Assembly (NCBI GenBank): GCA_028279585.1
Contig: JANQNL010000003.1
Coordinates: forward strand, 1,327 to 65,326
DNA from: Thermoplasmatota archaeon
GTDB taxonomy: Archaea; Thermoplasmatota; Penumbrarchaeia; JANQNL01
Direction of reading: 5' to 3'
DNA: 64,000 nucleotides
Positions 6,093 through 37,654 of the stretch are shown piece by piece; position 1 is the stretch's first letter, and the number at the start of each line of letters is the position of its first letter. The translations under genes and the position numbers were made by a program. The notes under the pieces were generated by a model, which did not search any database, was not told where the DNA came from, and saw only the letters and a program-made list of their open reading frames with translations.

Positions 6093-8041
<1,949 letters not shown>

Positions 8042-17413: not shown

Positions 17414-17502
17414 ATGAGCACCTTCTGTGAGGCCAGTGTTGTGGAATGGAAGTGTGGTATTTAGAGGTTATCGTGAAGAGTTCTATAGGGGGTGGGTAGC
17501 CA

Positions 17503-19249: not shown

Positions 19250-19507
19250 GTTCGGTCACTCCTGCGATAGACACTGATAGACCTGGCCAAACTCCCCCAC
19301 ATGGCCTTGGTACAGGCTTGGACCCAGGTCGCTGGTTCCGACTGATTGTGTTAAATATATAAACAAATAGCGTGGATTTGTTTTAACGAACGTTGCATCC
19401 ATTGACCTGATAATGACCAAGACCCTGCAACAAACCCATTATCTTCCCAGACCATGCAAAAACCATAACTATCCTATGGGTGATGCACCAGGGCGAGGCA
19501 AGCCCTA

Positions 19508-20437: not shown

Positions 20438-21015
20438 CGGTCCTTTCCCCCCCGGTCGCAGCCGAGGCTGTCAAAGAGCTCTCTGTGGGAGATGTGGTCT
20501 ACGTCTCCGGCATCATCGCTACCCTGCGTGACGAGGGCCACATGAAAGCTTTGGAAGCGGGAGCACTTCCGTTCGACCTCAACGGAGGTATACTCTACCA
20601 CTGCGGCCCTCTCATTGTTGGAGAGGGCTCGGACAGGAAGGTCCTTGCCGCTGGCCCAACAACCTCGTCCCGCATGGAGGACCTGGAGCCTGAGTTCATC
20701 ACCAAGTTTGGTGTCCGCGTGGTCATCGGAAAGGGGGGCATGGGTCCCAAGGTCATTGAGGCCATGAAGGAGAACTCATGCGTCTACCTTGCCATGCCTG
20801 GTGGCTGTGCGGCTGTAGCTGCCGATGCCGTGACCAGGATAGTGGACGTCCACTGGGAGGAGCTCGGTATGCCCGAGGCTCTATGGGTGTTCGAGGTGGA
20901 GAAGCTTGGACCACTGGTCGTAGCTATCGATGCCAAAGGCTCAAGTCTGTATCAGATCTCGGAGGATACGGTACAGGAGAACCTGGAGAGGATCGAGAAG
21001 GGATGGTCGCCGTAG
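20434..21015 (+). CDS. fumB: Class I fumarate hydratase, beta subunit (TTG start overlapping the fumA stop)
   Basis: GDVVYVSGIIATLRDEGH...GPTTSSRME...VVIGKGGMG. Confidence 0.8.
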   Translation: MTVLSPPVAAEAVKELSVGDVVYVSGIIATLRDEGHMKALEAGALPFDLNGGILYHCGPLIVGEGSDRKVLAAGPTTSSRMEDLEPEFITKFGVRVVIGKGGMGPKVIEAMKENSCVYLAMPGGCAAVAADAVTRIVDVHWEELGMPEALWVFEVEKLGPLVVAIDAKGSSLYQISEDTVQENLERIEKGWSP

Positions 21016-21051
21016 AAAGGCTTTGAAAAATTACTGATAAGAATCGATATT

Positions 21052-21112
21052 CAGAACTGTTATAGCACTAGAATTCTAGTTCTGGATATCGACCCCTTCT
21101 TCTCCCTTTTTC
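21052..21112. terminator. Hairpin (CAGAACT...AGTTCTG enclosing the 12-bp palindrome CTAGAATTCTAG) plus a T5 tract between convergent genes
   Basis: Read from the sequence. Confidence 0.35.
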
Positions 21113-21178
21113 GAAGCCTGCCGGAGGTTGACCATCTATTTTCGGGTACATTGATGGAGGGTGCCAATTATTGAATAT

Positions 21179-22174
21179 TTACAATCGTTTCACTACAGCG
21201 TCTGCGAACTCCTGTGTCCCAAGGCTCCCACCCTGGTCCTTCGTAACTTCCTTTGCAGCATAGCATTCACGCAGCGCAGCCTCTATCTGCTCAGCAAGAC
21301 CGACCTTGTCCTGATGCTTCAGCATCATGGCCGCAGAGAGCATGGTCGCTGTCGGATTGGCGATGCCCTTGCCCGCGATGTCGGGGGCCGATCCGTGCAC
21401 TGGCTCGAAGAACGAATGGACCTCTCCGATGTTCCCGGACGGCGCCAATCCCAATCCACCAACAAGACCTGCAGCCTCGTCAGATAGGATGTCTCCGTAC
21501 AGGTTCGTGGTCACGACAACATCGAACCGAGCTGGGTCTGTGATAATGAACATCGCAGCTGCATCAACGAAAAGCTCATCCGTTCGCAGCTTGGGAAACC
21601 GCTGCGAGACCTCACCGAACGTCTTCCTGAACGCCCCATCCGTCACCTGCATCACGTTCGCCTTATGAACACAAGTTACCTTCTTGCGAGCATTGTCCCT
21701 GGCATAGGTGAACGCGAACCTACAGATCCGCTTCATCCCCAAGTCGGAGTATCGCCGCTCGGCAACATAGGCCTTGGTCCCGTCCTCCAGCTCCTCCACC
21801 CGCTCTTCCCCCACGTACAATCCCTCGGTGTTCTCCCGAACGATCACCATGTCTGGGCCATCCCCTACGATAGGCTTGACCGGGCGCAGGTTCGCATACA
21901 GGTCGAGCTTCTGCCGGAGCATCGGGACCACTGGCCTGTAACCCGGAGTGCCTGCTGGTGCGGACTGCACAGCCCCAAGGAGGCACGAGTCCGCCTCCAT
22001 TATCCCGTTGACGGTCTCATCCGGTAGGAACTGCCCTGTGTCCTTGTTGCACTGCAGTCCTGCCTTAAGCTCGATGAGCTCGATATCCGGGACCAGCGCC
22101 ACGAGGACCTTGACGGTTGCTTGGACTACCTCTGGCCCTACGCCGTCGCCTTCGACCAAAGCTATGCGCATCAT
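21179..22174 (-). CDS. Isocitrate/3-isopropylmalate dehydrogenase family (NAD(P)-dependent beta-decarboxylating dehydrogenase)
   Basis: IALVEGDGVGPEV...GSAPDIAGKGIANP. Cannot distinguish ICDH, LeuB or homoisocitrate dehydrogenase by eye. Confidence 0.8.
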   Translation of the reverse strand: MMRIALVEGDGVGPEVVQATVKVLVALVPDIELIELKAGLQCNKDTGQFLPDETVNGIMEADSCLLGAVQSAPAGTPGYRPVVPMLRQKLDLYANLRPVKPIVGDGPDMVIVRENTEGLYVGEERVEELEDGTKAYVAERRYSDLGMKRICRFAFTYARDNARKKVTCVHKANVMQVTDGAFRKTFGEVSQRFPKLRTDELFVDAAAMFIITDPARFDVVVTTNLYGDILSDEAAGLVGGLGLAPSGNIGEVHSFFEPVHGSAPDIAGKGIANPTATMLSAAMMLKHQDKVGLAEQIEAALRECYAAKEVTKDQGGSLGTQEFADAVVKRL

Positions 22175-22227
22175 CAAAGGGGGAATTACCTATCAGGTAT
22201 AAATGGGAGTCGAACCTTCAGGCCAGC

Positions 22228-22965
22228 ATGGACCGCGAAGAGTACTTCATGGAGCTTTACGGCACTCTACCCAGAGCAGGACCAGGCGATAGCAACTCCA
22301 CAAGACGGGCGTTCGAGCAGCTTAAGCTCGTCGACGAACCGAAGATCCTCGACGTAGGATGCGGTCCGGGCGTGCAGACCGTGGACCTCCTCAAGATGAC
22401 CAAAGGCACGGTTGTAGCTCTTGACTTTTACCAGATCATGCTCGATAGGACCAAGGCCCTCGCCGAGAAGGAAGGTGTAGCAGATAGGCTTGTGACCACT
22501 CAAGGTGACATGACCGACATGGATTGGAAGCTGGAAAGTTTCGATGTGGTCTGGTCAGAAGGAGCGATCTACATCATAGGTTTTAGACGTGGTCTTGAGG
22601 TCTTCAAGTCGTTCCTCCGACCTGGAGGATATCTCGTAGCAAGCGAAGCTGTATGGCTCAAGCCAGACCCGCCGCACGAGGTCAAGGTCTTCTGGGATGA
22701 GTACCCAGAGATAGACTTCGCAGACGAGAAGCTCAAGATAGCAGAGGACCTCGGTTACCATTACGTGGACCACTTCATCTTACCTCACTCATCGTGGACC
22801 ACCCCCTACTACAACCACCTCGTCATCAAGGTCGAGGAGAAGGAGGAGGAGTGGAAGGGCATACCTGAGGCCGAGGACGTCCTGGTCGAGGCTAGGAACG
22901 AGCTTGCAGTGTTCGAAAAGTATGCAGAGTATTACTCCTACGCGTTCTTCATCTTGAGAAAGTGA
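22228..22965 (+). CDS. Class I SAM-dependent methyltransferase
   Basis: ILDVGCGPGVQT motif I. The ORF-track start at 22117 overlaps the opposite-strand dehydrogenase. I prefer the ATG at 22228. Confidence 0.7.
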   Translation: MDREEYFMELYGTLPRAGPGDSNSTRRAFEQLKLVDEPKILDVGCGPGVQTVDLLKMTKGTVVALDFYQIMLDRTKALAEKEGVADRLVTTQGDMTDMDWKLESFDVVWSEGAIYIIGFRRGLEVFKSFLRPGGYLVASEAVWLKPDPPHEVKVFWDEYPEIDFADEKLKIAEDLGYHYVDHFILPHSSWTTPYYNHLVIKVEEKEEEWKGIPEAEDVLVEARNELAVFEKYAEYYSYAFFILRK

Positions 22966-23346
22966 TCATTTCCTATAGGTCTTGATCCACAGGATGTGGC
23001 AGGTAACGCCTACTCCTACGACAAGTAGTAGGAGTCTTATTTCAAGTATGTCCGTGAACAGGAACGCAGATACTCCCAGTGTTGCCCACAACAAGGCTAG
23101 TGTGATGATCTTGTTCCTGACCCTCATGCCCTTGCGTTCAAGATAGTTCCGCAGGTACTCTCCACAGAGCTTGTTGTTGAGCAACCACTTGTACATCTTC
23201 TCCGAGCTACGGACATAACAGAGAGCTGCAAGGATGAGGAACGGAGTGGTGGGAAGCAGAGGGAGGAAGATGCCTAGGATGCCTAGACCTAGACATATCG
23301 TTCCTGCTATGAGGAGGATGACCTTGAGAGGCTTCAGAGCCATCAT
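22966..23346 (-). CDS. Small membrane protein, DUF454/YbaN-like
   Basis: 126 aa with four predicted TM segments and a YbaN-like pattern. Confidence 0.55.
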   Translation of the reverse strand: MMALKPLKVILLIAGTICLGLGILGIFLPLLPTTPFLILAALCYVRSSEKMYKWLLNNKLCGEYLRNYLERKGMRVRNKIITLALLWATLGVSAFLFTDILEIRLLLLVVGVGVTCHILWIKTYRK

Positions 23347-23380
23347 AGCTTGGAATGGACTGGTGGTTTATGGACTTTGG

Positions 23381-26300
23381 TCAATCCTCTTCCTCAGTGC
23401 TCCATACCTCATCCCCATCCTCATCGATTGACTCAAGCTCTGCAAGTTCCTCTTCGAACTCCTCTTCCGGTGTTAGCTCTTGTAGTTCCTCATCCATATC
23501 CTCATCTGGAAGGTCATCCCATCCTTCATCCTCGGGATCCAATACTTCTACTTCGATAGGTTCGACCTTTGGCATGTCCTCTTCATCTTCCTCCACCTCC
23601 TCCTCTTCCTCGACCTCATCCGGTTCAGAGGCTTCCTCTTGATCTTGGGACATGCGGCTTCTGACGAACAGGAGCGCAACGATAGCGACCAGTATCAAGA
23701 CCAAGATCGCCACGATGATAAGGATGATGTTCGCGGTTCCCAGGTCTGAACTGGAACCACTACCTGGGTCCTTCTCGATGATCGGTAATGTATAATCTGC
23801 ATCGCCTGTTTCATTGACCGTCAGAGTGAAGAAATAGTCACCGACCGGTGCCTTGATGGTCACATCATATGTTCCGGGTTCCAATCCCTCGAACGTCACA
23901 TGGCCGTCATCGTTGGTGGTCTCTTCCGTTCCATCATCCAGTATCATTACGATACCATCTGCTGGTTCTCCATCCTCGTACACCAAGGGTCCTACATCAA
24001 TATCGTATGTAGGTGTAATCCCATCCCAGACCTTGACAGTAAAGTTGAGGATATCAGTACCACCCCGACCATCGGCCACTGTTAGCTCCACCCAATATGT
24101 TCCAATGTCTGCTTGGGTAGGAATACCTACGATCCTTCCAGTCTCGATGTCCAACCACCCTGCGTTCGTTCTCAATGACCAGGTCAATGTATCCCCGTCA
24201 AGGTCCGTCGCGATCAGGCTCTCGATATACATCTCGTCATAAACGACCATCGTAGATGGGTCCATGTCAATGATCGGGTCCTCGTTGGGTTCTGGGACGT
24301 CAATGACATTGATAGTGAACGTCTGTGTATGGAACTCATCTCCATCGGTGACGTTCACAATGACGATATGCTCTCCCACTTGGTCTTTCGTCGGTGTCCA
24401 TGTGATAGCGCCTGTTGCTCCATTGATGTTCATTCCTGCCGGAGCGCTATCGAATGAGAATGTCAGGACGTCCCCGTGAATGAGATCATCATCGATTGCG
24501 GTCACATTGTATGTGTACTTCACAAGTTCTGTAGCGTTGAGGACAGGTGTGCTGACGATCGACGGTGGGTCGTTCGTGTTCTCGACGGTCAAGGTAAAGT
24601 TCTCAACTGTCTGCCCACCTAATCCATCGCTCACCTGTATCTCTACCCAGTAGGAGCCTACATCATTGTTGAGAGGAGTTCCACTGAGTACCCTTGTTCC
24701 TGCGTCAAAGCCCAACCATCCTGCATTGCTGTCCATGGACCAGGTCAAGCTGTCACCTGTTGGATCAGGGTCTGTTGCAGAGTATGTGACGGAGTATAAT
24801 GTGTCCTCGTAGGCAGTATCAACATGGTCTGTATCGATGACAGGACCATCATTGGCATTTGATACTTCTATCGAGAAGTTTGTGAAGGATGAACCACCCT
24901 TCTCATCAGACACGGTGACATTGGCCCAGACGGACCCAACATCGTCGTTGGTCGGTGTTCCCGAGAGGACTCCGGTGTTGAGGTCGATATCGAGCCAATC
25001 CGCTTCTGTATGGAGAGACCATGTCAAAGTATCACCGGTAGGATCGATGTCGTGAGCCTCGTAATCGACGGAATACTCAACGTCCTCGGTGGCTGTCTCG
25101 ACATCCACCGTATCGATGATCGGGTCGTCATTGACGTTCTCTACGGTTAGGATGAAGTATTGGAAATCGCCCGCACCAACAGTGTCGTTGACGGTAACAT
25201 TCACCCAGTATGAGCCAACCTCTGAATTAGTCGGTGTTCCAGAAAGAACCCCGCTCATGACATCGATGCTCAACCATCCCGCATTCGTATCGAGTGCCCA
25301 GGTCTGCGAGTCGCTGGCATCAACATCCGTTGCATTGTAGTCGACCTCATACAGAACGTCCTCATCGGTCGTGATCTGCTCTAGGGTCGTTATTGAAGGT
25401 GCATCATTGGTGTTGAGAACGATCAGAGTGAGGTTAACAGTGTCCGTTGCATCGAACGCATCAGTGATGGTCATTTCCACCCAGAAGGTCCCAACATCAT
25501 TGTCCCCTGGAGTGCCTGATAGGACACCATCGGTCAAGGTCAACCAACCGCTCGCATTGGTCCTCAAAGACCATTGCGGGATGCCGCTCGGGACAATGGT
25601 GATATCGAAGAGGATGGTCTGGTTGTAGAACAGGTCCTCTGTGGCATCTGGTAGGGAATCAGTAAGGATCTGTGGAGGATAGTAGAACTCAAGAAGATGA
25701 TCGAAGTATGGATAGGACCTCGTGTTCTCGATGGCCCAGACATTGGTAAAGTCCCAGCCAGCTCCAGTGAACGTAGTGCTTGTCATCATCTGGGTCGTTG
25801 TCTGTCCAGTTCCACCATCACTTGCTGCCTGGCCCGACGTTTGAGTATCCCAGAAACAGTTGGTGATCGTGCCGAAATTCTCTCCGCAAAGGCCGCCTGT
25901 CAGGGTGGTTCCGGTTACCGATCCAGAGCTGTAGGCATCATCGATGGTTCCTTGGTTGCCGCCTACCAATCCACCGACCTTGTCGTTTCCGGACACATCT
26001 CCTTGAGCGTAACAGTCCTTGATGGTTCTTGTATTATTTCCTACTAAACTTCCGGTATTGTTGTTTCCAGAGACATCGCCATATGAGCAGCTGTGCTCGA
26101 TAATTGCATTGGAGTCAAAGGAGATTCCCGCCAACCCACCTACGAAGTCAATACCAGAAACATCACCAAAGTTTGTAGATGTGACAATACTTCCCCGGTC
26201 ATTCTCACCAATGATACCACCAACATTGTTCATTTCACCATCGACCGAGCCAAGGTTCGTGCAATTTGTAACATCGGAATCATAATTATAACCGATGATA

Positions 26301-29300
26301 CCGCCTACATCGTATGATGTTCCATAGATGTCATCGTGGTTCGTGCAATTGGCGAGTGTTAGGGTCCAGCCGCTACCAACAATACCAGCAACAGAAGAAT
26401 TTCCATAGACGTAACCGTAGTTGTGTGAATTGATCACTGATCCGGTACTGAAATACCCAATTATTCCACCCACAGCATTTGCGGTTCCGGTAACATTGCC
26501 ATTGTTGGTGCAATCCAAAACAGTTCGACTAGAACCATACGCACCTACGATCCCGGCACCATTCACAGATACACAGGTGATATCGCCCCAGTTAGTGCAG
26601 TTCGTGATATCCTTGTTACAATAACCGGTCATACCGCCAATATTAGAATCTCCGGAAACATTTCCAAAATTGACATTGTCTTTTAGTTCCCGGGTGGATC
26701 GGCCGGCGATACCGCCTCCATTAGAACCAGAAGAGTTGATGTCGCCATAGTTCACACATCGCTGAAGGTTTCCAGTATTAAGATAACCACAAATACCTCC
26801 GATTTGATCAACACCAGAAATGTTACCGTAATTATAGGAATTATGGATGTTACCACCACCCATTGAATGAAGACCAGAGATTCCACCGAGATAGTCTTCT
26901 CCACTAACATCGCCATAGTTGATATTGAAATTTAAGTCACCACCCCGATGCATTCCTATTATTCCACCGATCATTTCTTCACCGGATATTGTACCAAAAT
27001 TTTGATTATTAGTTGCCCAGTGACTCCCAGAAAATCGGTAAAAGTAGCCAATAATTCCTCCAACGTAGTCCTCAGTTCCTGTTACAGATGCATAGTTTGA
27101 GTTATGTTTTAGATCAGAGTTGGAGGCATATCCTGCAATCCCACCTACGTCCTCTGCTCCGTAAATTTCTCCATGATTCGAACAATTCTCAATCATTGAA
27201 TTGGAACCAAGGTATCCTACAATTCCTGCCGCATTATCCTCATCGGAAATAACAGAACCATAGTTGGAGCAATTATGGATCTCACCTGCAAAACCACCAA
27301 CAATACCACCAACCATAAAATCGGTAGCATAAATCGTACCATAGTTTATTAAACCAAAATAATAGGTGTTTTGCTGGAACCCAGAAATTCCACCGACGCT
27401 GTAATCACCAGTGACATTTCCGTGGTTCGAAGAGTTCACAACTGACGCACCATCTGCAATGCCGTTTATACCACCAGCATAAATTCCCGTCCCATTTATT
27501 ATTCCATAATTCTCACAATTGGAAATGGGAGTTCCATCATTTCCACCAATGATGCCGCCTGTGTTATGTTCACTAAAAATATAACCAAGGTTTGTACAAT
27601 TCTGGATAACACCCGTGTTAGATTGGCCAACAATTCCACCAGAGTATTCATTTCCAGAGATCATACCTTCATTTGTGCAGTTTTTGACCTGTGAAGAGAA
27701 TTGCATTCTTCCAACAAATCCTCCGACATCATCATCTCCACTTGATACATTTCCATAATTCGTGCAGTTGAAGATATAAGAATTTAAAGTAAGGAAGCCT
27801 GAAAATCCACCCAACCCCCAGTCCGTACCTCCGAACACATCGCCGTGGTTAGTCGTTTTACTGATTGTTGTTCCCTCAGCTTCACCTACGATCCCAGCAC
27901 CACGGCTGAGAGTACAATTGACATCGCCATAGTTTACACACATCTCAATGGTCGCAGAATTGGAATGCCCAACAAGCCCCCCTACATAGAATGAACTGGT
28001 TACATCTCCGTAATTGATGCAGTTGAACATAGTTTCATCACTAAAATAACCGCTTATTCCAGCGACATCTATACTGGTTCCAGTAACCAAACCTTCGTTT
28101 ACACAATTGGACAATCTTGCTTCACTACTTGATCCTGCAATACCTCCCAGATGGTGTTCCCCATCAATATTCCCGTAATTATATCCATCAATAATGTCTG
28201 ACTCCGCTACATAACCACATATTCCACCAACACTCTCCGTTCCGGTAACATTGCCATGATTGATCGGATTCTTAAGAGAACCAAAACCATCGATATACCC
28301 TGTGATACCACCGGTTGCTTCATCAGTGGCAGTTATCTCACCGTAGTTTTGAGTGTAGTTCAAGTAAATATCTTCCGAATTACCGATTATTCCAGCGGTG
28401 TATTCTACTCCATAAACATCACCATAATTGGTACAGTTCTCGATGGAAGCGACTTCGTTTCCACCAACGATTCCTCCGGACTTATAATCCCCCTTGATAG
28501 TACCATAATTGGTACAATTTCGAATATCCACCGTGTAGGCATTTGCAACAATTCCACCGGTACTTGTATCACTGTTTGTGACATCGCCATAGTTGTGGCA
28601 TCCGAAGATGTCAATGTAGTCTCCCACACCTACCAACCCACCGGTTTCATCACTTCCTTCGATATCTGCACTATTTGTACAGTTGTTAAGTACTCCATTT
28701 TCAAACAGACCAACCATCCCACCGATCAGACTATCACCTAGGATGGTACCCTCGATCGAGCTGTTGAATATAGTTCCCTCATAAAATACACCACAAAGGC
28801 CAATAAGATCATCTCCTTTGATGTAAGCATTGATCAAGTGCAGGTTCTCCAACTTTGAGTCCTGATCATTTATTTGTCCAAAGAGCCCAACACGATCCTC
28901 AGAAGGGCGGTTGATGTAAAGACCATCAACAACAAAGCCCTGACCATTCAACGAGCCAGTAAATGGAGTTGAGGTTGTTCCAACAGGTTCGAAACCATCC
29001 CCATCATACCAGAACTTTGACTCGGAAGCATCAAAACTGTTGACTATGGTGAAGTTCGCCCACAGGTAGTTCCTCATATTCTGAAGATCGAAAACGTTCT
29101 TGATCTTGAACGGATCGCCAACTGTTCCCGAACCCCCTAAGGTGGAATACGTCCCAAAGAATGGATAGGTCTCGTCCTCGAAGATGGACCAGATACCTGT
29201 GAAGTTCCAACCGGGAGTGATGAAAGTTGCCGCCTTTTGCATTAGGGCTGTTGTCTGTCCAGTTCCGCCATCACTTGTCGCTTGACCGGATGATACTGTG

Positions 29301-32300
29301 TCCCAGAAACAGTTTCGGATTGTTCCACCAGTGTTGTCACCACAGAACCCACCAAATGTACTTGATGCTGTCACAGCCCCAATGCTGTAACTTGTATTGA
29401 TGCGCCCGATATTCTCTCCAACAAAACCGCCAACGGTTGAACTTCCTGTGACCGAGCATTTTGAAAAACTGTTATCGATGGACCATTCGTTCCTTCCGGC
29501 AAATCCACCAGCAGTGTCTCCTGTCCCTGCACCTTTAACAACTGAACCAGTACTGAAACTTCGGTTGATCGATCCAAAATTCCGACCAACAAAACCACCG
29601 TATGTGCTGTTTCCAGTTATCGTTGCATCTATAGAAGCACTATTGTTGATTTCCATATTTGACCAGGCTGCAACGCCACCAATATAAATATCGCCGGTAA
29701 TGTCGCCGTAATTGAAGGAGTAATTTACCAACCCCTCACCATTTGCCTCTCCGACAACCCCGCCAATATAATCATCTCCTGAAACATCACCAAAATTATT
29801 CGAATTATAGATCGATCCTTCTATTATGATCCCGGCGATGCCCCCAAGACGATTTCCATAATAAACATCCCCATTATTATCACAATTGGAGATCTCACCA
29901 ATATCGAGATAACCGGTTATTCCACCGACACCATAATTTGCCACTATTAAGCCGTTGTTCACGGAATCAAAAACATCGCTGTCATCTTGTATACCGACAA
30001 TACCTCCAACGTAGACATCGCCTGAGATCGTGCCATAGTTGATGCAATCTATGATCTCTTGGCCATTTTCCTCACCGGCAATCCCACCAACCTCGTCATC
30101 TGCAGTAACACTTCCATAGTTCACACAATTATAGATCGAAGCGGTATTTCTGATCCGGCCAACAATACCACCAGCCTCGTCTCTGGTGGTAGAAACGTTT
30201 CCGAAGTTTACACAGCGTTCGATGGTTCCTCCACTTACATAGCCAAAAATTCCACCAACATCATCATTGTTGTGTGTTACATTCCCCCAGTTGATACAAT
30301 CCTGCCCTCCCTTGGAGTTTGACCCAGCTATCCCCCCTACTTCCTGGGCCTGACCATTGATCAGACCATAATTGGTATGGTTATTGAAGACCGATGCGGT
30401 ATTTGTTCCAACGATCCCACCAGTCGATCTTAGACCCTGGATGTGACCGTAATTTGTGCAATTGACAAATTCTGAACCTGCAAAGTAACCAACAATACCT
30501 GCGTTCCTCCAGCTGTTCCCTTTGATCGATCCATTGAATGTGCAATTCCTAAGAATGCCACCGCTTATTCTCCCTGCTAGGCCAGCTTTCTGGGAATTTG
30601 CCTCGATATCGAAATCGTCCATATGAATGTTCTGGAATACCGATGAACTGAGACCCGCGGTACCAAAAATGCCTTGATCGTTGCTCCTTGGCCTATAGAT
30701 GTTCAGGCCTGTTATTGTGTATCCCTGACCGTCCAGAGAACCCTTGAACATAGAAGAACTGGTCCCGACAGGAATGAAACCAACACCGCCATTCCAGACC
30801 TCGGTTTCTGAAGCATCAAAGCTGTTGTTAATAATATAAACTCCATTCAGGTCGTTCTCCATACCCTGGAGTTCGTAAACATTTGTGATAACATATGGGT
30901 CTCCGGCTGTTCCACTTCCAGTAGGTGTTGGATAAGTGATGAGGTCGAACATAGGACAAGTCTCGTCCTCTCTGATCATCCAGACATTTGTGAAGTCCCA
31001 GCCTTTGGCTGTAAATGTAGCCTGCATCATCATATCGTCATTCCAAGTTGCGATCCCGCCATCACTTGAACCAGTCCCGGAATTATCTCGATCAAAGAAG
31101 CAGTTTGCGGAAATGGTTCCACTGTTGTCACCGCAGAAACCGCCAACATTTGTATTTCCTAAAACAAGCCTTGTGCTGTAGGACATACTGATGGTTCCAG
31201 AGTTCTGTCCTACAAAACCACCAACAGAAGTATCACCGGTGACCTCACCCCAGGCATAAGTATTGTTGATCACTCCACTGTTGTCACCAACGAATCCACC
31301 GATACGATCATCACCGGATGCATCACCGGTAGCAGAGGAGTTTTCTATAGTGTCGCTATTTATACCTGCAAATCCACCGATCTCATCTGCCAAACCGGTT
31401 CCGGTAGCCGTCCCGGTTGCTGAACACCAGTAGATATCTCCACCATTGTATCCTATAAATCCCCCAGCCTGTGAAGAACTGGCCTGGGCATTCCCTGTTG
31501 CAGAGCAATACTTAAAGATAGCATCATCGCTCTCTCCAGCAAAACCCCCAATATAATCCGATCCGGTAGCATTACCGCTGCTTGAGCAATTCTCAATAGA
31601 TATGATCGTTTCGACATATCCAACGAATCCTGCAACATACGAAGTGCCGGATGCATCTCCTGAGCTTGTGGAATTAATGATAGACCCATAACTACCACCT
31701 ACAAAGCCACCTATGTCAGATAATCCATTTATGTCACCAGAAGCAGAACTGTTTGATATTGACCCGGAAAAGTGCAATCCAACGAAACCCCCAACATTGT
31801 CAACGCCTCCAACATCTCCGGTTGCAAAGCAATTTTCAACAGTGCCTTGGTTTTCTCCAATCAAGCCTCCAACATTACTCAAACCTGAAATATCTCCATA
31901 AGAATGGCAGTTGGTGACTGTAACGTCATTATTTACAGTTCCGGAAATACCTCCAATGCTTGATGCAGTACCAGTCATTTTTCCATAGTTATAACAGCTC
32001 CAAATTGAAGCGTTATCAAGCCTTCCAGCTATTCCACCAAGAAGTTGAGGGGAGTCTCCGTCACCATAGTTAATACAATCAAACATATCGCCAATTTGAA
32101 GCCTTCCCGCAATCCCACCAACATATTCATTACCAGAGAAGTTTCCTACATTAGTGCAGTTCCAAATATTTGATATATCATCTGCTCGACCTGCCACACC
32201 ACCAACCCATCGATCTCCGGTAAGATCGCCATAGTTTGAGGAGTTGCAAATATTAAGGTTATCTCCTTCCCCGACAATTCCACCGGTAAGATCATCTCCA

Positions 32301-34405
32301 GTAACATCACCATAGTTTATACAACGGTCTATTAGGCCATTTTGAAATAACCCAACGATTCCACCATTTCCCATATTGATATTGGAAACTGTTCCATAAT
32401 TCTTGCAATTGGTGATGTTGTAATCTTCTACATTACCGGCAATTCCCCCAACCCTGTGTCCACTGAGCGTACTAATGATGTCGCCATAATTATCACAGTC
32501 GATAATATCTGCATCAGACTCACCAACAATGCCACCAACATCTGCTTCGCCTGATACTGTAGCATAATTGATACAATTATCAATTGAGCCTAATTCCTTA
32601 TACCCGATCACACCACCAACCTCATAGTCTGTGGATGAAATGATACCATCAACAGTGCAGTTCCAGATATCCCCAAAGGAATGATAGCCAGCTATACCTG
32701 CGACATTTTCATCCCCGGTGAAGTTAACATTAGTCAAATCAATATCGTGAATATCTGTTCCTACACCACTTACATATCCGAAAATACCAACATAATCCCT
32801 GGTAGAGCGGTTGATGAACAAACCATCAATGGTATATCCCTCTCCGTTAAGGGAACCTGTGAACGGATCAGAATTAGAACCTACTGGATCATATCCGGCA
32901 CCACTGTTCCAGGTCAGGGTAGGAGTGGCGTCTATGTCGTTTACTATTTTATAATGAGCTGATTTGTTAAGCGTCATGTTCTGGAGTTCCCAGACATTGT
33001 GGATGAGATAAGGATTACCAATGGTTCCATTACCTTGTTTGAAAAGGCTCTCTGCACCGATGTAACGGCAGACCCTGACGTAATTATCTATCCTGATGAC
33101 CTCGCCGAACGGCCCATTGCCTTGCGGGTAGTTCGATGGGTTCCCCTCCTTTCGGTCGGCACGAAGAGCACCTGCTCCATGGACATCGATCAGGTTATAT
33201 ACACCCGAACCCGGAGGCATTTTCTCCATCCATCCATAAGCCTGACCAAAGGCAGCATATATGGCAAAGGATCCATTTGTGCCTGTGGTCCAGTTGTGGA
33301 GCGTGGTCCCGGTCCAGTAGTATGGGAATGTGTCGTTGTTCGCCTCGTCCTTTATCTTAGTACAATTGAACAATGGGTCAATGGTCGGGGTTCCATTTGT
33401 TGTGGGTGAGACCGAATAGTTGACGATCGAGTGAAGCTCTTTTGCGTCCGGAAGTCTCCAGTCATAGTAACCTGCGAACGTCATGGACTCAGCGTGGTCG
33501 AGTGCATCCGACCAGTTCATTCCAGATCCACTATCATATTGCTTCCACATAAGGCCCGTTGACCAGTCTGTGATAGTGCCATCTCCATTGTCCTCGAGGT
33601 CATTGACACCATAGTTGTCTCCACCACGGACGTACTGGACGTATGAGTAATTTGGTGTGCCCCCTTTTAAGGTAGTGCCATAGCCCTTCAATGTTCCATC
33701 TGCAAAGTTAACGCCAAATACCGTATGGACATTGTTCATAGTCGTGCTCACATACTGGGTCGACGACCAGTATTGGGCCTGAACGACATGCTCTCCTTTG
33801 GAAGTGTCCCCGTACTTGAATCCAAAGTAATTGGTATCTATGAAAGGCGTGAGCTCTGATGTATCTGTCCCTCCGGATTCCTCCCACCACTGGCAGTCCT
33901 CTCCCCTGAAATCAATGAGCGAGTACAGTTCCTTGATAGTTGGCACCCTCCAATCACTGTGACCACCTGTAGTGATGTTCCCGTTCGAGGCGTTGTTCAT
34001 AGCCTCCATCCACGGTGCCTTGTCATATCCATTGGGATCTGCCTGCCACATCAACCCGGTGATGTTGTCGGTGATGGTCCCGTCCCCATGGTCATAATAA
34101 CGAGCCTGGAACCCTTCATAGTTGGCATCCTGACCCCAGAACCCTTCTCCCTCCGAGGGAGTGGTAATGATACTATCGGTGTCGAATGCCAGATCCTGCA
34201 TGGTGTCAACCACAGGATAGCTCACTTCACTTGGATCGATATGGACCGAGGTTCGAACTGCAGCTTCAGCAGGCTCGACCAGCGGTCCATCGAGGATCGT
34301 TATGATCCCAACGAAACTGCTAACTATCAACATACATACTACCAATACGCTCAGTTTTCTACCCATAGGTTCACCCCGGAGGTCCAATTTCTCATATTTG
34401 TCCAT
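23381..34405 (-). CDS. Giant (3674 aa) type I membrane surface protein. Domain order: signal peptide, 2x DUF1566 (Lcl-like), three tandem super-modules of GLUG-type repeats (about 100 repeats), cadherin-like/He_PIG Ig domains, CarboxypepD_reg-like domain, TM helix, poly-acidic tail.
   Basis: DUF1566 motifs GDGTITDNITGLMWQ and TGLMWKQ. Repeats of the form NC[ST]N[YH]G...VGG[IL][AV]G with about 28 aa period. Ig-like domains (NDAPSI, NDDPII). C-terminal TM ANIILIIVAILVLILVAIVALLFV followed by about 95 aa of D/E-rich tail. A TATA abuts the first ATG, so the true start may be M14 (MGRKLSVLVV...). Confidence 0.85.
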   Translation of the reverse strand: MDKYEKLDLRGEPMGRKLSVLVVCMLIVSSFVGIITILDGPLVEPAEAAVRTSVHIDPSEVSYPVVDTMQDLAFDTDSIITTPSEGEGFWGQDANYEGFQARYYDHGDGTITDNITGLMWQADPNGYDKAPWMEAMNNASNGNITTGGHSDWRVPTIKELYSLIDFRGEDCQWWEESGGTDTSELTPFIDTNYFGFKYGDTSKGEHVVQAQYWSSTQYVSTTMNNVHTVFGVNFADGTLKGYGTTLKGGTPNYSYVQYVRGGDNYGVNDLEDNGDGTITDWSTGLMWKQYDSGSGMNWSDALDHAESMTFAGYYDWRLPDAKELHSIVNYSVSPTTNGTPTIDPLFNCTKIKDEANNDTFPYYWTGTTLHNWTTGTNGSFAIYAAFGQAYGWMEKMPPGSGVYNLIDVHGAGALRADRKEGNPSNYPQGNGPFGEVIRIDNYVRVCRYIGAESLFKQGNGTIGNPYLIHNVWELQNMTLNKSAHYKIVNDIDATPTLTWNSGAGYDPVGSNSDPFTGSLNGEGYTIDGLFINRSTRDYVGIFGYVSGVGTDIHDIDLTNVNFTGDENVAGIAGYHSFGDIWNCTVDGIISSTDYEVGGVIGYKELGSIDNCINYATVSGEADVGGIVGESDADIIDCDNYGDIISTLSGHRVGGIAGNVEDYNITNCKNYGTVSNINMGNGGIVGLFQNGLIDRCINYGDVTGDDLTGGIVGEGDNLNICNSSNYGDLTGDRWVGGVAGRADDISNIWNCTNVGNFSGNEYVGGIAGRLQIGDMFDCINYGDGDSPQLLGGIAGRLDNASIWSCYNYGKMTGTASSIGGISGTVNNDVTVTNCHSYGDISGLSNVGGLIGENQGTVENCFATGDVGGVDNVGGFVGLHFSGSISNSSASGDINGLSDIGGFVGGSYGSIINSTSSGDASGTSYVAGFVGYVETIISIENCSSSGNATGSDYIGGFAGESDDAIFKYCSATGNAQASSSQAGGFIGYNGGDIYWCSATGTATGTGLADEIGGFAGINSDTIENSSATGDASGDDRIGGFVGDNSGVINNTYAWGEVTGDTSVGGFVGQNSGTISMSYSTRLVLGNTNVGGFCGDNSGTISANCFFDRDNSGTGSSDGGIATWNDDMMMQATFTAKGWDFTNVWMIREDETCPMFDLITYPTPTGSGTAGDPYVITNVYELQGMENDLNGVYIINNSFDASETEVWNGGVGFIPVGTSSSMFKGSLDGQGYTITGLNIYRPRSNDQGIFGTAGLSSSVFQNIHMDDFDIEANSQKAGLAGRISGGILRNCTFNGSIKGNSWRNAGIVGYFAGSEFVNCTNYGHIQGLRSTGGIVGTNTASVFNNHTNYGLINGQAQEVGGIAGSNSKGGQDCINWGNVTHNNDDVGGIFGYVSGGTIERCVNFGNVSTTRDEAGGIVGRIRNTASIYNCVNYGSVTADDEVGGIAGEENGQEIIDCINYGTISGDVYVGGIVGIQDDSDVFDSVNNGLIVANYGVGGITGYLDIGEISNCDNNGDVYYGNRLGGIAGIIIEGSIYNSNNFGDVSGDDYIGGVVGEANGEGLVNYSFNYGDITGDIYIGGVAAWSNMEINNSASIDATITGNSTYGGFVGRNFGSINRSFSTGSVVKGAGTGDTAGGFAGRNEWSIDNSFSKCSVTGSSTVGGFVGENIGRINTSYSIGAVTASSTFGGFCGDNTGGTIRNCFWDTVSSGQATSDGGTGQTTALMQKAATFITPGWNFTGIWSIFEDETYPFFGTYSTLGGSGTVGDPFKIKNVFDLQNMRNYLWANFTIVNSFDASESKFWYDGDGFEPVGTTSTPFTGSLNGQGFVVDGLYINRPSEDRVGLFGQINDQDSKLENLHLINAYIKGDDLIGLCGVFYEGTIFNSSIEGTILGDSLIGGMVGLFENGVLNNCTNSADIEGSDETGGLVGVGDYIDIFGCHNYGDVTNSDTSTGGIVANAYTVDIRNCTNYGTIKGDYKSGGIVGGNEVASIENCTNYGDVYGVEYTAGIIGNSEDIYLNYTQNYGEITATDEATGGITGYIDGFGSLKNPINHGNVTGTESVGGICGYVAESDIIDGYNYGNIDGEHHLGGIAGSSSEARLSNCVNEGLVTGTSIDVAGISGYFSDETMFNCINYGDVTSSFYVGGLVGHSNSATIEMCVNYGDVNCTLSRGAGIVGEAEGTTISKTTNHGDVFGGTDWGLGGFSGFLTLNSYIFNCTNYGNVSSGDDDVGGFVGRMQFSSQVKNCTNEGMISGNEYSGGIVGQSNTGVIQNCTNLGYIFSEHNTGGIIGGNDGTPISNCENYGIINGTGIYAGGINGIADGASVVNSSNHGNVTGDYSVGGISGFQQNTYYFGLINYGTIYATDFMVGGIVGGFAGEIHNCSNYGSVISDEDNAAGIVGYLGSNSMIENCSNHGEIYGAEDVGGIAGYASNSDLKHNSNYASVTGTEDYVGGIIGYFYRFSGSHWATNNQNFGTISGEEMIGGIIGMHRGGDLNFNINYGDVSGEDYLGGISGLHSMGGGNIHNSYNYGNISGVDQIGGICGYLNTGNLQRCVNYGDINSSGSNGGGIAGRSTRELKDNVNFGNVSGDSNIGGMTGYCNKDITNCTNWGDITCVSVNGAGIVGAYGSSRTVLDCTNNGNVTGTANAVGGIIGYFSTGSVINSHNYGYVYGNSSVAGIVGSGWTLTLANCTNHDDIYGTSYDVGGIIGYNYDSDVTNCTNLGSVDGEMNNVGGIIGENDRGSIVTSTNFGDVSGIDFVGGLAGISFDSNAIIEHSCSYGDVSGNNNTGSLVGNNTRTIKDCYAQGDVSGNDKVGGLVGGNQGTIDDAYSSGSVTGTTLTGGLCGENFGTITNCFWDTQTSGQAASDGGTGQTTTQMMTSTTFTGAGWDFTNVWAIENTRSYPYFDHLLEFYYPPQILTDSLPDATEDLFYNQTILFDITIVPSGIPQWSLRTNASGWLTLTDGVLSGTPGDNDVGTFWVEMTITDAFDATDTVNLTLIVLNTNDAPSITTLEQITTDEDVLYEVDYNATDVDASDSQTWALDTNAGWLSIDVMSGVLSGTPTNSEVGSYWVNVTVNDTVGAGDFQYFILTVENVNDDPIIDTVDVETATEDVEYSVDYEAHDIDPTGDTLTWSLHTEADWLDIDLNTGVLSGTPTNDDVGSVWANVTVSDEKGGSSFTNFSIEVSNANDGPVIDTDHVDTAYEDTLYSVTYSATDPDPTGDSLTWSMDSNAGWLGFDAGTRVLSGTPLNNDVGSYWVEIQVSDGLGGQTVENFTLTVENTNDPPSIVSTPVLNATELVKYTYNVTAIDDDLIHGDVLTFSFDSAPAGMNINGATGAITWTPTKDQVGEHIVIVNVTDGDEFHTQTFTINVIDVPEPNEDPIIDMDPSTMVVYDEMYIESLIATDLDGDTLTWSLRTNAGWLDIETGRIVGIPTQADIGTYWVELTVADGRGGTDILNFTVKVWDGITPTYDIDVGPLVYEDGEPADGIVMILDDGTEETTNDDGHVTFEGLEPGTYDVTIKAPVGDYFFTLTVNETGDADYTLPIIEKDPGSGSSSDLGTANIILIIVAILVLILVAIVALLFVRSRMSQDQEEASEPDEVEEEEEVEEDEEDMPKVEPIEVEVLDPEDEGWDDLPDEDMDEELQELTPEEEFEEELAELESIDEDGDEVWSTEEED

Positions 34406-34471
34406 ATATATAGCATTCTAGTCAGGTCAGTTCAAGTGATACAACCTGAACCAATGGCTTGGATCGACCGA

Positions 34472-37375
34472 CTAGTCTGCCCATTCATCTTCATCCTGTT
34501 CTTCTTCCAACTCCACCTGGTCCCACCCCTCGTCATCTGGTTCATCTTCATCGTAATCGAGGTCATCGTCCTCATCGAACTCATCTTCTCGCGGTTCATC
34601 TCCATCTACGCTCTCTTCCTCCTCGACCACCTCCGTTTCCGGCTTGATGTCCTCTGTGACCTCCGCGTCCACGATCTCGTCCTTGTCCTCGAACAGGTCC
34701 TCCTCCCCTATCTCCACATCCTCCTCCGGGATCCTCGGGCTTTCCTCTTCCTCCCTGTTCTTCAGGAACAGCAGGACGCCTACGATAATCGCTATGATGA
34801 CAATAACAGCGACAACAAGAAGGACCAGGTAGAGAGCGTTCCCAGCAAGGTCGCTGGAGGACTGGCTTCCACCATCTTCCCCATCTGTGGCCCCACCATC
34901 CGTGGTGTTGGTCCCACCGTCGGTTCCATCAGTGGTTCCGCCATCGGTACCGTCCGTAGTGTTGCCATCGGAGCTTCCTCCATCGGTACCGTCTGTGGCC
35001 CCACCATCAGTAGAACCGCCATCGCTTCCACCATCTCCACCATCCACGACGACCTCCTCGATGCGCTCGATGAACACTGTTTGCTTGCACACATCCGAGT
35101 TTATTGTGCCATCAGAGATCGTTAGGGTGATAGTGTAGGTCATGTTCTCCTCGAGTTCAGGATAGGTGTAGGATGTCTCCAGACCCTGGCTGACATTTCC
35201 CTCGCCAAGGTCCCAGAGGTAGGTGAGCAGATCTCCATCTACATCAGAAGCTGTATTTGCTTTGAGCGCGACTGATGTCCCATTGACGCTTGCCGTGAAG
35301 TTGTTGTTCACTGGTTCGTCGTTGACCGGAAGGACCGTGACATCCACAAAGGCCGAGACCTCGAGCTCTGTGTCGTTGGCTGTGAAGTAGAGCCTCTCCG
35401 CTCCATTGTAGTTCAGCTTTGGGGTGAGCTCCACGGTCTCGTTCGGTAGGATGATGATGCTGATGTTCACGTTCTCCTCGAAAGTGAAGACCAGATCGTC
35501 CCCATCGATGTCCGAGAACCAGTGGTTCAGGTCAATGTCGTTATTGACAGTGTCCTCATCGAAGCTGAAGTCGTCAACGGAGTTGTTCACCCTCGGCCCA
35601 TCATTGGTGTTGTGGACAGTGAGCGTGAACAAAGAATGGGCCTCCCCACCGTTCCCATCGGCAACAGATACATTGACAGAGTAGGTGCCGATGTCTGCCT
35701 GGACCGGTGTCCCTGAAAGGAGGCCCCCGGTCGTCATGGAGAGAAAACCTGCATCCGAGCTCATGGCCCAGAACAGATTGTCTGAAGTTGGATCGATGTC
35801 ATCTGCGGAGTATTGGACCGAGTACTTCTCATCTTCGTGTGCGTCGAGAACATCGTTGGTCAGGATCATCGGGTCATCGTTCACGTTAATGACCTCGAGC
35901 GTGAAGTTCGTATGGTCCGACATGAACGTGGTGTCGGTCACAGTAACGTTGACCCAGTAGGTCCCAACATCCTCGTTCAATGGGGTTCCAGACAGGTTGC
36001 CGGAGATCGCGTCCATGGAAAGGAAACCTGCATCGGTATCGACGGTCCAGGTAAGGACGTTCTCGTCGAGGTCGATAGCTGTATACGTCACAAGATACTC
36101 TTCATCCTCTGTGGCGTTGATGTCGTTCACCGTCTGGATCTCAGGTTCGAAGTCCGGAGGGTCCACCTCGAATGCGACCCTGCAAGGCCGGACCATGTTG
36201 AAGATCCTAATGATATCTCCCTGGGGTCCATTGCCATTAGGCCAGTTGGATGGGTCTCCGTCCTTCGGGTCGCTCCTCTGGGCTCCTGCGCCGTGGACGT
36301 CTGTGAAGACGTAATTGCCGGAGTTCGGAGGCATCTCGTTCCATCCCCATGCCTCACCGAAGGCTACGTAGGCTCCCCAAGGTGTACCACCATCAAGGTG
36401 TGTAGAGGATGACCAATAGAACCCATAATCCGGATAGATTCCGGAACCGATATCTGTGATATTGAACACATCATCGATCGCGGGTCCGACATTCTGGGGG
36501 TCCGTTGCGTTCGGAGCTTTGGAGTATTCAAGGATACCCTGAAGCTCCTTCGCGTTCGGCAGGTACCAATCATCATGTCCTGCAAGTGTCAGTGAAGTGC
36601 AGTAGTCCAGTGCATCACTCCAGTTCATCCCGGAGCCAGAGTCGTCCTTGGCCCACATGAGGCCTGTGGCGTTATCGGTGATCGTTCCATCGCCATTGTC
36701 GATGAAGTCATTGACACCATAGTCTGTAGGACCACGGACGTACATCGCTTCGCACTCCTTTTCGAATTGGTTCCCCGGTGGACCCACAGGCTCTGCTGGG
36801 TACCCCTTGATCCTGCCATCTGCGAAGTTCACACCAAAGGCGGTCTTGTCCCCACCCATGGTCTCTCCGACATAGAGTGTGGATGACCAGTACTGAGCAT
36901 CGATGAACCTCTCCCCTGCAGACTCATCTCCGTACTCGAAATCAAAGATGTCGTCATCGAGGAACGGGTCGGAAGTGGCAGCGCTGTTACCACAATATCC
37001 CGAAAAGTCCATCAGGGAGTATAGCTCCTTTATAGTTGGGAGTCTCCAATCATCATACCCCGCAAGGTCGAGGTCATCGGCACCAGACACGGCATCATCC
37101 CAGTTCACGTCCTCGCCTGGTGTCTTCTGCCACATGAGGCCGGTGTTCAGGTCCAGGACCGTCCCATCTCCCATGTCTTTATAGCTTGGAGAGGTACCAT
37201 CGACCTGGGCATCCTGGCCATACCATTGCTCCCCCTCGTTCGGGTCGGGTATGTATCCGTCCTCATCAAAGCAGTCTTCCTGGTTCGTGTCTACCACGAC
37301 ATAGCTTGCCATGACAAGGGACGAGAACAGTACAAAGCTTATCATTCCTATGAGCAGGGATGTTGTCTTTCTCAT
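34472..37375 (-). CDS. Surface protein (~967 aa). Domain order: signal peptide, 2x DUF1566, about 4 cadherin-like/He_PIG domains, a G/S/T/D-rich stalk, TM helix, poly-acidic tail.
   Basis: MRKTTSLLIGMISFVLFSSLVMA signal with a GGAGGTG RBS. The ORF track extends to 37528. The DUF1566 region is highly similar to that of the giant protein. The stalk reads DGGDGGSDGGSTDGG... The TM is LYLVLLVVAVIVIIAIIVGVLLFL, followed by an acidic tail containing DEGWD. Confidence 0.8.
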   Translation of the reverse strand: MRKTTSLLIGMISFVLFSSLVMASYVVVDTNQEDCFDEDGYIPDPNEGEQWYGQDAQVDGTSPSYKDMGDGTVLDLNTGLMWQKTPGEDVNWDDAVSGADDLDLAGYDDWRLPTIKELYSLMDFSGYCGNSAATSDPFLDDDIFDFEYGDESAGERFIDAQYWSSTLYVGETMGGDKTAFGVNFADGRIKGYPAEPVGPPGNQFEKECEAMYVRGPTDYGVNDFIDNGDGTITDNATGLMWAKDDSGSGMNWSDALDYCTSLTLAGHDDWYLPNAKELQGILEYSKAPNATDPQNVGPAIDDVFNITDIGSGIYPDYGFYWSSSTHLDGGTPWGAYVAFGEAWGWNEMPPNSGNYVFTDVHGAGAQRSDPKDGDPSNWPNGNGPQGDIIRIFNMVRPCRVAFEVDPPDFEPEIQTVNDINATEDEEYLVTYTAIDLDENVLTWTVDTDAGFLSMDAISGNLSGTPLNEDVGTYWVNVTVTDTTFMSDHTNFTLEVINVNDDPMILTNDVLDAHEDEKYSVQYSADDIDPTSDNLFWAMSSDAGFLSMTTGGLLSGTPVQADIGTYSVNVSVADGNGGEAHSLFTLTVHNTNDGPRVNNSVDDFSFDEDTVNNDIDLNHWFSDIDGDDLVFTFEENVNISIIILPNETVELTPKLNYNGAERLYFTANDTELEVSAFVDVTVLPVNDEPVNNNFTASVNGTSVALKANTASDVDGDLLTYLWDLGEGNVSQGLETSYTYPELEENMTYTITLTISDGTINSDVCKQTVFIERIEEVVVDGGDGGSDGGSTDGGATDGTDGGSSDGNTTDGTDGGTTDGTDGGTNTTDGGATDGEDGGSQSSSDLAGNALYLVLLVVAVIVIIAIIVGVLLFLKNREEEESPRIPEEDVEIGEEDLFEDKDEIVDAEVTEDIKPETEVVEEEESVDGDEPREDEFDEDDDLDYDEDEPDDEGWDQVELEEEQDEDEWAD

Positions 37376-37654
37376 GGTAACCACCTCCACTATTTGTCGA
37401 CCCGAGGCCTTTTCTTCATTGTCGTAAAGATCTGGACGAGCTCGATGTCCACTTCGTACAGTATCCCACAGTGGGGACATGGGTACTTGGTGTTCGTGAT
37501 TCCCGGAACCGGAATATCCTTGCGACAATCCGGGTAAATGGGCCTATCACGTGTCTCGATCCTATCCATAGGTCGGGCTTCCTTGTTCTATCCATCCGAG
37601 TTGAATGTATATATTGATAGACCGAAATGACACCCAAATCGTTCCCAAATTCGT

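Follow-up and report, generated by a model that had tools for sequence, protein, structure and literature searches.

A giant, probably membrane-anchored GLUG protein with three predicted beta-helix rods and a lectin-like head, encoded in an archaeal genome

Among the described surface proteins that are built on a right-handed beta-helix, the adhesin-like proteins of methanogens are of interest beside the one that concerns us here; in them, a helix of up to 1,236 amino acids (aa) with alpha-helical N-caps is combined with immunoglobulin (Ig)-like repeats and a transmembrane anchor (PMC11532034). Membrane proteins with GLUG motifs have been proposed as adhesins in the gut methanogen M. blatticola (PMC9723798). 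The subject of this paper is one gene on the minus strand of an archaeal contig (JANQNL010000003.1), at positions 23381-34405 of the 64,000-nucleotide stretch that we analysed (the window, below), and the questions that we ask of it are simple ones: what is its product built of, what might that product do, and how does it differ from the systems that it recalls? As the original prediction had it, the gene is a single uninterrupted open reading frame (ORF) of 3674 aa, counted from the first ATG, and it encodes a giant GLUG-type beta-helical surface protein of adhesin-like architecture (for which Pfam, an AlphaFold2 solenoid and matches to solved beta-helices all speak). We think it probable that this protein, the giant, is a type I membrane-anchored surface protein of the adhesin type, a segmented rod that presents a lectin-like head.

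All of the features of the archaeal adhesin-like class (a capped right-handed beta-helix, Ig-like repeats and a single transmembrane helix) are present in the giant, and its likeness to the proteins of Methanobrevibacter, Methanosphaera and Methanimicrococcus lies in this combination of beta-helices, Ig-like repeats and one transmembrane anchor. It departs from them in the place of the anchor, which is C-terminal and followed by a long acidic tail, whereas most of the methanogen proteins have an N-terminal helix; in its DUF1566 lectin-like tip; and in its host, which is no gut methanogen. The tip recalls Legionella Lcl (8Q4E), an adhesin whose C-type-lectin-like DUF1566 head sits distally on a long stalk, as in a “lollipop,” and binds sulphated glycosaminoglycans (PMC11162425). 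Unlike Lcl, the giant has no collagen-like stalk (there are zero runs of at least five G-X-Y triplets in the protein), hence no evidence for a collagen-driven trimer, and its head consists of two DUF1566 units in tandem with a conserved C-terminal extension, a subfamily that is 50-58% identical across bacteria.

Bacterial fibrillar and self-associating adhesins such as Ag43, UpaB, Fap2 and those of the filamentous haemagglutinin type also have a long right-handed beta-helix rod on the cell surface (weak Foldseek matches). In contrast to these, the giant belongs to another repeat family, would have a transmembrane helix as its anchor in a single membrane, and has neither a two-partner-secretion signal nor an autotransporter barrel; Pfam finds no domain of a C-terminal outer-membrane beta-barrel translocator in it, and its C-terminus has one alpha-helical transmembrane segment. 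Another set of relatives is formed by the M26 IgA1 proteases (NTD2 in 6XJA/6XJB from S. pneumoniae and 7UVK from G. haemolysans) and BACOVA_03286 (3N6Z), whose N-cap and first repeats are homologous to the giant's in sequence and fold. Unlike the M26 proteases, the giant lacks a metalloprotease part (its whole sequence is free of the HExxH motif, and the Pfam search gave no match to a peptidase catalytic domain), and its helix is many times longer and present in three copies. What is a lid over the active site in the M26 IgA1 protease would be a stalk in the giant.

The giant's own family is that of the GLUG proteins (PF07581), with which it shares the 27-aa repeat G.I.NC...G.V.G...VGG[LIF]VG, the N-cap G.PY.I...L..M...Y.L..DIDAS.T..WN...GF.PIG, the C-cap WD..TSG...S.GG.G.TT..M....TF...GWDF...W.I.....YP and the common arrangement in tandem modules. 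Many shorter GLUG homologues have two or three C-caps within <=1,000 aa, whereas the giant has 16-35 repeats per module, and a repeat subtype, NC[TS]NYG, dominates in it as it does not in its homologues. How common is such a protein? Our HMMER scan of 1.84 billion cluster representatives returned 50,071 GLUG matches at E <= 1e-3, of which 6,936 also pass E <= 1e-30; the 150 best-scoring representatives are 1,098-7,476 aa long with 6-26 matched stretches, and among them the giant has the most repeats (71; median 24.5). A library drawn from about 15 billion proteins contains no relative of more than 50% identity, nor were there close relatives across 185,579 species genomes, and the best representative match was P0241, the giant itself. 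Judged from its sequence, then, the giant is an exceptionally long member of a known and very abundant class of surface proteins. Its value is as a well-resolved example of the giant GLUG beta-helix surface proteins, which are very common and little studied, and as the source of a clean domain map, which runs from the lectin-like head through the three capped rods and the Ig stalk to the transmembrane helix and the acidic tail. The sequon-bearing repeat subtype, a codon-usage mosaic and a possible Asgard host, to all of which we return, are of minor interest.

The giant ORF is an actual gene, reproduced in a separately built assembly. Its true start is probably Met14 (ATG at 34366), which gives a coding sequence (CDS) of 23381-34366 and 3661 aa, because a TATATAT box (34406-34412) directly adjoins the first ATG, because GGGGTGA (34371-34377) precedes the ATG at 34366 by 4 nt, and because the gene call on the same sequence in an NCBI-sourced contig (P0241, 100% identical, 3661 aa) begins at Met14; a Logan contig codes for the 3674-aa version. 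The box and the GGGGTGA are a putative promoter and Shine-Dalgarno site, respectively. All of the features below lie on the minus strand and are listed from the N-terminal end.

34371..34413, minus: putative archaeal promoter and ribosome-binding site, read from sequence
23381..34405, minus: whole ORF, 3674 aa; probable CDS 23381-34366
34262..34366, minus: signal peptide (aa 14-48), from a hydropathy scan and inspection
33050..34261, minus: head, predicted membrane-distal, tandem DUF1566/Lcl_C (aa 49-452), from Pfam, AlphaFold2 and Foldseek
30935..33034, minus: GLUG beta-helix module 1 (aa 458-1157), with N-cap 458-546, 20 repeats 547-1092 and C-cap 1093-1157
29150..30919, minus: GLUG beta-helix module 2 (aa 1163-1752), with N-cap 1163-1251, 16 repeats 1252-1689 and C-cap 1690-1752
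25697..29134, minus: GLUG beta-helix module 3 (aa 1758-2903), with N-cap 1758-1872, 35 repeats 1873-2841 and C-cap 2842-2903
24002..25672, minus: stalk of six Ig-like domains of ~93 aa each (He_PIG/Big_9/cadherin-like, aa 2912-3468), from Pfam and linker motifs
23771..24001, minus: predicted membrane-proximal prealbumin/CarboxypepD_reg-like domain and Gly/Ser linker (aa 3469-3545), weak Pfam
23663..23734, minus: single C-terminal transmembrane helix (aa 3558-3581, ANIILIIVAILVLILVAIVALLFV), then RSR, from hydropathy
23384..23662, minus: predicted cytoplasmic tail; the last 89 aa, from aa 3586, hold 50 D/E and 1 K/R

What carries this map is, in the first place, a set of strong Pfam matches: Glug at 166 bits (gathering cut-off 20.5) and E 2.3e-50, He_PIG at E 5e-51 in five stretches, Lcl_C/DUF1566 at 125.7 bits (cut-off 34.9) and E 1.4e-36 in two N-terminal stretches, and Big_9 above threshold in five stretches, with Cadherin_5 also matched in the stalk. 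CarboxypepD_reg (E 0.0019) and SpaA (E 0.0059) are weak and under the gathering score, as is Peptidase_M26_N on the module-2 cap (19.2 bits against a cut-off of 27.7). All four of the families for which the original prediction had proposed a HMMER check against Pfam (Glug, DUF1566, He_PIG and, weakly, CarboxypepD_reg) were thus matched. The Ig domains are set apart by N[DE]xP separators at aa 3000, 3092, 3185, 3278 and 3374.

The hydropathy scan of the whole protein gives two hydrophobic segments only, the helix at aa 3558-3581 and the N-terminal signal peptide, which opens with the basic MGRK and has a hydrophobic core (LSVLVVCMLIVSSFVGIITIL) and a cleavage-type site, AEAA. From these two segments, the RSR after the helix and the acidic 89-aa tail, we infer a type I topology in which the lectin-like head is farthest from the membrane. 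A motif scan of the protein finds no PGF motif (the PGF-CTERM/archaeosortase anchor), and the acidic tail stands after the helix instead; its Trp residues lie in acidic context (EGWDDL and DEVWSTEEED).

The three capped super-modules that had been proposed do exist, and their caps are well conserved, with pairwise identities of 51-55% for the N-caps and 48-60% for the C-caps, but the modules are of ~700, 590 and 1146 aa, not the 800-1000 aa that had been stated. Entire modules are 33-38% identical in protein sequence, and their proposed origin by internal duplication is supported. The repeats had been put at about 28 residues; there are 71 of them (20+16+35), spaced 26-29 aa, with the consensus G.I.NC.NYGDV.G...VGGIVG, and a hidden Markov model made from the giant's repeats finds 71/71.

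Do such repeats make a beta-helix? AlphaFold2, given module 2 (aa 1159-1750) and 39 aligned homologues, predicts a continuous all-beta solenoid with three strands per 27-aa repeat (pLDDT 96.9, pTM 0.93), the N-cap having two helices and the C-cap short ones, and the structure-prediction check that had been suggested thus comes out in favor of a repetitive solenoid. Foldseek against the Protein Data Bank (PDB) places 3N6Z at the top (E 4.7e-5), with the M26 IgA1 proteases next (7uvk, 6xja) and weaker matches to generic right-handed beta-helices (e.g., tailspikes, Fap2 and Ag43). The sequences agree: a GLUG-family profile finds 3N6Z among PDB sequences at E 1.9e-27 and the IgA1 proteases at residues 114-373 (6XJB) and 1031-1297 (7UVK) at E ~1e-22 (2.6e-22). 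The matched residues are those of the NTD2 beta-helix gating domain (PMC9637739), and 3N6Z had earlier been recognised as a solenoid distantly related to GLUG repeats (PMC4021314). A phmmer search of PDB sequences with the whole giant protein gave no match, and the solved homologues emerged only with the family profile. Together, model and profile place the GLUG modules as beta-solenoids homologous to 3N6Z and to IgA1 protease NTD2.

The modules also carry a codon-usage mosaic inside the one ORF (arrays at 25883-32767). GC content at third codon positions (GC3) is 0.27-0.44 in the GLUG arrays and 0.46-0.60 at each cap junction, against values of 0.55-0.64 for head and stalk, with the housekeeping genes of the window at 0.70-0.75; the arrays favour T-ending codons (GAT 74%, AAT 59%), the housekeeping genes C-ending ones. 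The arrays might be of foreign or more recent origin, or slow decoding might have been selected for. One horizontally acquired block as the source of the low GLUG GC is a poor fit, for GC3 recovers at every cap junction.

Thousands of bacterial DUF1566 proteins, many of them with type IX secretion or dockerin tags, share 50-58% identity with the head. Its AlphaFold2 model (pLDDT 72, pTM 0.78) is matched best in Foldseek by the Legionella Lcl C-terminal domain (8q4e; probability 1.0, E 2.9e-3) and next by snake-venom and mannose-receptor C-type-lectin-like domains. By analogy with Lcl, the tandem DUF1566 head is likely the part that binds a ligand, presumably a glycan. We note that this head of ~400 aa (33050-34261; homologues P0121-P0240) is unusually conserved for an adhesin tip, with ~75 invariant columns, including HGAG.R.D.K...G.GP.G..R near its C-terminus. 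That an archaeon and bacteria of many phyla share it to this degree suggests that its ligand is universal or that it has an unrecognised activity, and that it has spread horizontally.

Is the rod glycosylated? About 100 N-glycosylation sites had been predicted, with NC[ST] in nearly every repeat, and both figures were too high. We count 82 N-x-S/T sequons, 57 of them in the GLUG region; a sequon starts at the conserved turn in 23/71 repeats, and NC[ST] stands there in 16/71 (18 protein-wide). A weaker site of a second kind, G-N-[VI]-[ST]-G, is present in 11 repeats. The 82 sequons exceed the 51.7 +/- 6.4 expected by composition (0/1000 shuffles reach 82), and the enrichment is present in the head, the GLUG region and the Ig stalk alike; the tail has 0, and a tail of such composition is expected to hold none by chance.

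What sets the giant's repeats apart from those of its homologues is found just after the Asn-Cys of this turn, at three positions. Column 11 is Thr or Ser in 41% of the giant's repeats as compared with ~12% in homologues, column 12 is Asn in 69% versus 3%, and column 13 is Tyr in 42% versus under 3%. That is, the subtype NC[TS]NYG replaces the family's NCYSTG, and this raises the frequency of sequons at the turn (32% in the giant versus 5.6% in homologues). The turn Asn tends to occur together with a Ser/Thr two positions on (odds ratio 5.1, p = 0.003). In the set of giant representatives, turns rich in sequons go with the layout of a transmembrane helix and an acidic tail (4/6 versus 8/143, p = 3e-4), and the sole named example of this type is archaeal, from a Thermoplasmata metagenome-assembled genome (MAG). 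We have, then, a repeat subtype in which a turn that is probably exposed has been converted into a glycosylation sequon. This pattern fits, without proving, selection for N-glycosylation of the exposed turn in archaeal membrane-anchored GLUG members, and the giant itself is probably an N-glycosylated surface rod.

How might all of these parts work together? We imagine that, with the signal peptide removed, the chain would lie outside the cell, held by the single C-terminal transmembrane helix, and that the order outward from the membrane would be the prealbumin-like domain, the six Ig/cadherin-like domains, the three GLUG rods and, at the tip, the head. The rods would be right-handed, of ~22, 18 and 38 rungs, with Pro/Thr/Gly linkers of roughly <=10 residues between them. 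At 4.8 A each, ~78 rungs would make rods of ~35-40 nm together, so that the fibre of tens of nanometres that had been predicted is plausible, and the fully extended ectodomain, with its six Ig domains and head, would measure about 70 nm. Thr or Ser placed two after the turn Asn makes N-x-S/T sequons of about a third of the turns, and these, if used, would lay an N-glycan stripe along one edge of the rod.

Several points weigh against this reading. The word “adhesin” is taken from the architecture and from homology to domains of uncertain general role; the generic role of DUF1566, in particular, has been called not clear (PMC11162425). The head model is moderate (pLDDT 72), and its Foldseek match to Lcl reaches only E 2.9e-3. 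The inward placement of the repeat Cys (below) and the exposure of the sequon Asn are both read from substitution patterns. And in the single Asgard archaeon with glycoproteomics, N-glycosylation was found mainly on a solute-binding protein (PMC11284389), so heavy glycosylation of such a rod is not assured.

Might the giant be a coat rather than an adhesin? As a structural coat or spacer, it would be a tall glycosylated protein that replaces an ordered S-layer, keeps up a hydrated glycocalyx and a fixed distance from the membrane to neighbours or particles and uses its head to bind the cell's own glycans. There is something to be said for this: cultured Asgard archaea are without an ordered S-layer and have many complex protruding surface proteins (PMC9834061, PMC11284389), the window codes for no fewer than four large surface proteins that share one type of anchor and tail, and sequons are enriched throughout the ectodomain. 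The Asgard affiliation of the host, however, hangs on one gene, and fibrillar adhesins, not lattice proteins, are classically laid out in this way, with a highly conserved lectin-like head carried distally on a long stalk; lattice-forming domains and a PGF-CTERM/archaeosortase signal are absent as well. We therefore regard a coat or spacer as unlikely.

Right-handed beta-helices often bear glycan-active sites, and one might ask whether the rods are themselves catalytic (in the manner of the polysaccharide lyases and hydrolases; compare pectate lyases and phage tailspikes), which would make the giant a surface-tethered, glycan-degrading enzyme. Tailspikes, capsule depolymerases and lyases are indeed among the weaker Foldseek matches, but at E >= 0.09 and TM-scores of 0.2-0.27, and the Pfam search gave no pectate-lyase, glycoside-hydrolase or Beta_helix family at E <= 0.01. 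The repeats are very regular, with short turns and without long loops or groove-forming insertions, the solved homologues (3n6z and IgA1 protease NTD2) are non-catalytic, and the HExxH motif is missing. Catalysis by the rods is, to our minds, very improbable.

The adhesin-type rod that we prefer has also to be set beside the boldest part of the original prediction, a regular ladder of ~100 Cys, one to one with N-glycans on ~100 rungs; taken as a rival reading, such a ladder would have functional thiols (disulfide staples or metal or redox sites). Cys is the commonest residue at one conserved repeat column (39/71, with Ser in 18/71), and there it lies beside a conserved Asn and within NC[ST] in the 16 repeats already counted. 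In the model, this Asn-Cys pair sits in the two-residue turn that joins strands one and two of each rung. But the whole protein has 59 Cys, 55 of them in the GLUG region, so that Cys is on only 55% of the rungs and NC[ST] on 23%; the link between Cys and sequon within the giant is not significant (p = 0.13), and the runs of Cys-bearing rungs (5, 5, 3 etc.) have no pairing pattern. The ladder is largely refuted by these counts, and we give it scarcely any credence.

What, then, is the Cys for? The same column in 1,335 repeats of 120 homologues is C in 51% and S in 33% (84% C/S together), and the preceding column is N in 44% and D in 12%. Among the 150 best-scoring representatives, some giants use Ser only or nearly so (P0243 has 63 S and 1 C, P0246 has 56 S and 0 C), as compared with a Cys-type giant, P0252, at 49/52. 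The repeat Cys is by this comparison an ancestral, family-wide trait and not peculiar to the giant. Because Cys and Ser exchange freely across homologues and because Ser-only giants exist, the conspicuous Cys is probably an interchangeable small packing residue at the corner of the solenoid and not a functional thiol.

That assembly has collapsed the repeat array or made a chimera of it is a worry that a highly repetitive protein from a metagenomic source invites, but we put the chance of it at next to nothing, since no exact direct DNA repeat within the 11-kb gene exceeds 19 nt (typical assembler k-mers, e.g., 31, are longer, and reads far longer), the repeat copies are only 60-76% identical to one another at the DNA level, the frame stays open across 11 kb, and a Logan contig of 19,470 nt (run SRR20820740) is base-for-base identical to the window at 16797-36266, with the same protein encoded in it. 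Collapse of the assembly, a risk that had been raised, is in this way set aside, and mis-assembly of the gene is very unlikely. The low identity of the copies, the 19-nt longest repeat and the identical Logan contig mean, moreover, that the internal duplication behind the super-modules is ancient. Tandem Repeats Finder reports short repeats in the acidic tail of the gene and nothing else. Long plus-strand ORFs, of up to 388 aa, also run antisense inside the gene (33959-35125, 28256-28741 and others) and overlap the neighbour's acidic tail; most likely, they merely arise from the biased codon content of the coding strand.

The giant comes after two more large minus-strand surface proteins with the same anchor and tail. 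The first (34472-37528, minus, 1018 aa) has a DUF1566 head 50% identical to the giant's, set directly on He_PIG/Big_9/cadherin/PKD domains, and then a transmembrane helix and an acidic tail. This paralogue is the giant's architecture minus the GLUG rods and suggests an insertion of the rods between the head and the stalk. The second (37655-40705, minus) has FG-GAP repeats, five K319L-like PKD domains and the same anchor and tail. The window as a whole is dense in large surface proteins, with GC3 below that of its housekeeping genes; FG-GAP/VCBS-repeat proteins are encoded at 37655-40705, 48583-50820 and 50843-52327, all on the minus strand.

Who is the host? The window encodes a TATA-binding protein (8334-8891, plus), by which gene the host is archaeal. 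Beyond that, the sole pointer is the aconitase gene (57434-59506, minus), whose product is 69-72% identical to those of seven Heimdallarchaeota/Promethearchaeati MAGs, the next matches being bacterial and <=55%. On this one gene, the host is possibly a Heimdall-type Asgard archaeon; no synteny of the window with Heimdall loci was found. If the affiliation is true, the giant becomes a candidate for the tall “complex surface proteins” seen in Asgard cryo-tomography, which are thought to mediate the cell-cell contacts of a syntrophic lifestyle, and a rod of its kind would suit that picture of the Asgard surface (PMC9834061). A second protein that we considered as a host marker, a “Cpn60_TCP1” protein, turned out to be a bacterial-type GroEL and was uninformative. 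Its gene (6377-8041, plus) adjoins that of the archaeal TATA-binding protein, its best match is 73% identical, and its named matches are from Woesearchaeota, ANME-2, Methanosarcinales and bacteria, which indicates, from sequence comparison, a group I chaperonin laterally acquired by an archaeal genome.

Four surface proteins of the window have one C-terminal transmembrane helix followed by an extremely acidic tail of 60-130 aa (23384-23662, minus; 34472-34750, minus; 37655-37850, minus; 63400-63647, plus). Near each tail end, a Trp stands in acidic context, in sequences that run to the stop codon: EGWDDL...DEVWSTEEED, DDEGWDQ...DEDEWAD, NVDWDDDDDDLEFMD and QDDDDVWM. Such tails resemble the Trp-acidic docking motifs of eukaryotes. 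A conserved Trp-acidic tail motif was not found in the other archaeal GLUG giants with acidic tails, in which Trp is mostly absent. One could go further and suppose a Heimdall-group host in which the rod and the three other surface proteins of the window are transmembrane receptors, with their acidic Trp tails (EGWDD, the terminal DEDEWAD, VDWDDDDDD and the terminal DDDDVWM) docking onto a cytoplasmic partner (e.g., a cytoskeletal or membrane-remodelling one) and with NC[TS]NYG as an archaeal adaptation that coats the rod with glycans. If this were so, a glycan-binding head ~70 nm outside the cell would be linked to its interior, as in eukaryotic adhesion receptors; as a whole, we hold the idea to be quite improbable.

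The fourth of these tails belongs to a plus-strand protein of 1277 aa (59814-63647) with Peptidase_C25 (gingipain-like), CARDB and Big_9 domains and a transmembrane helix, and it differs from the others in make-up: an acidic stretch gives way to a strongly basic one (RRRRKGKGRKGRKGKGRKRRPK), with DDDDVWM at the very end.

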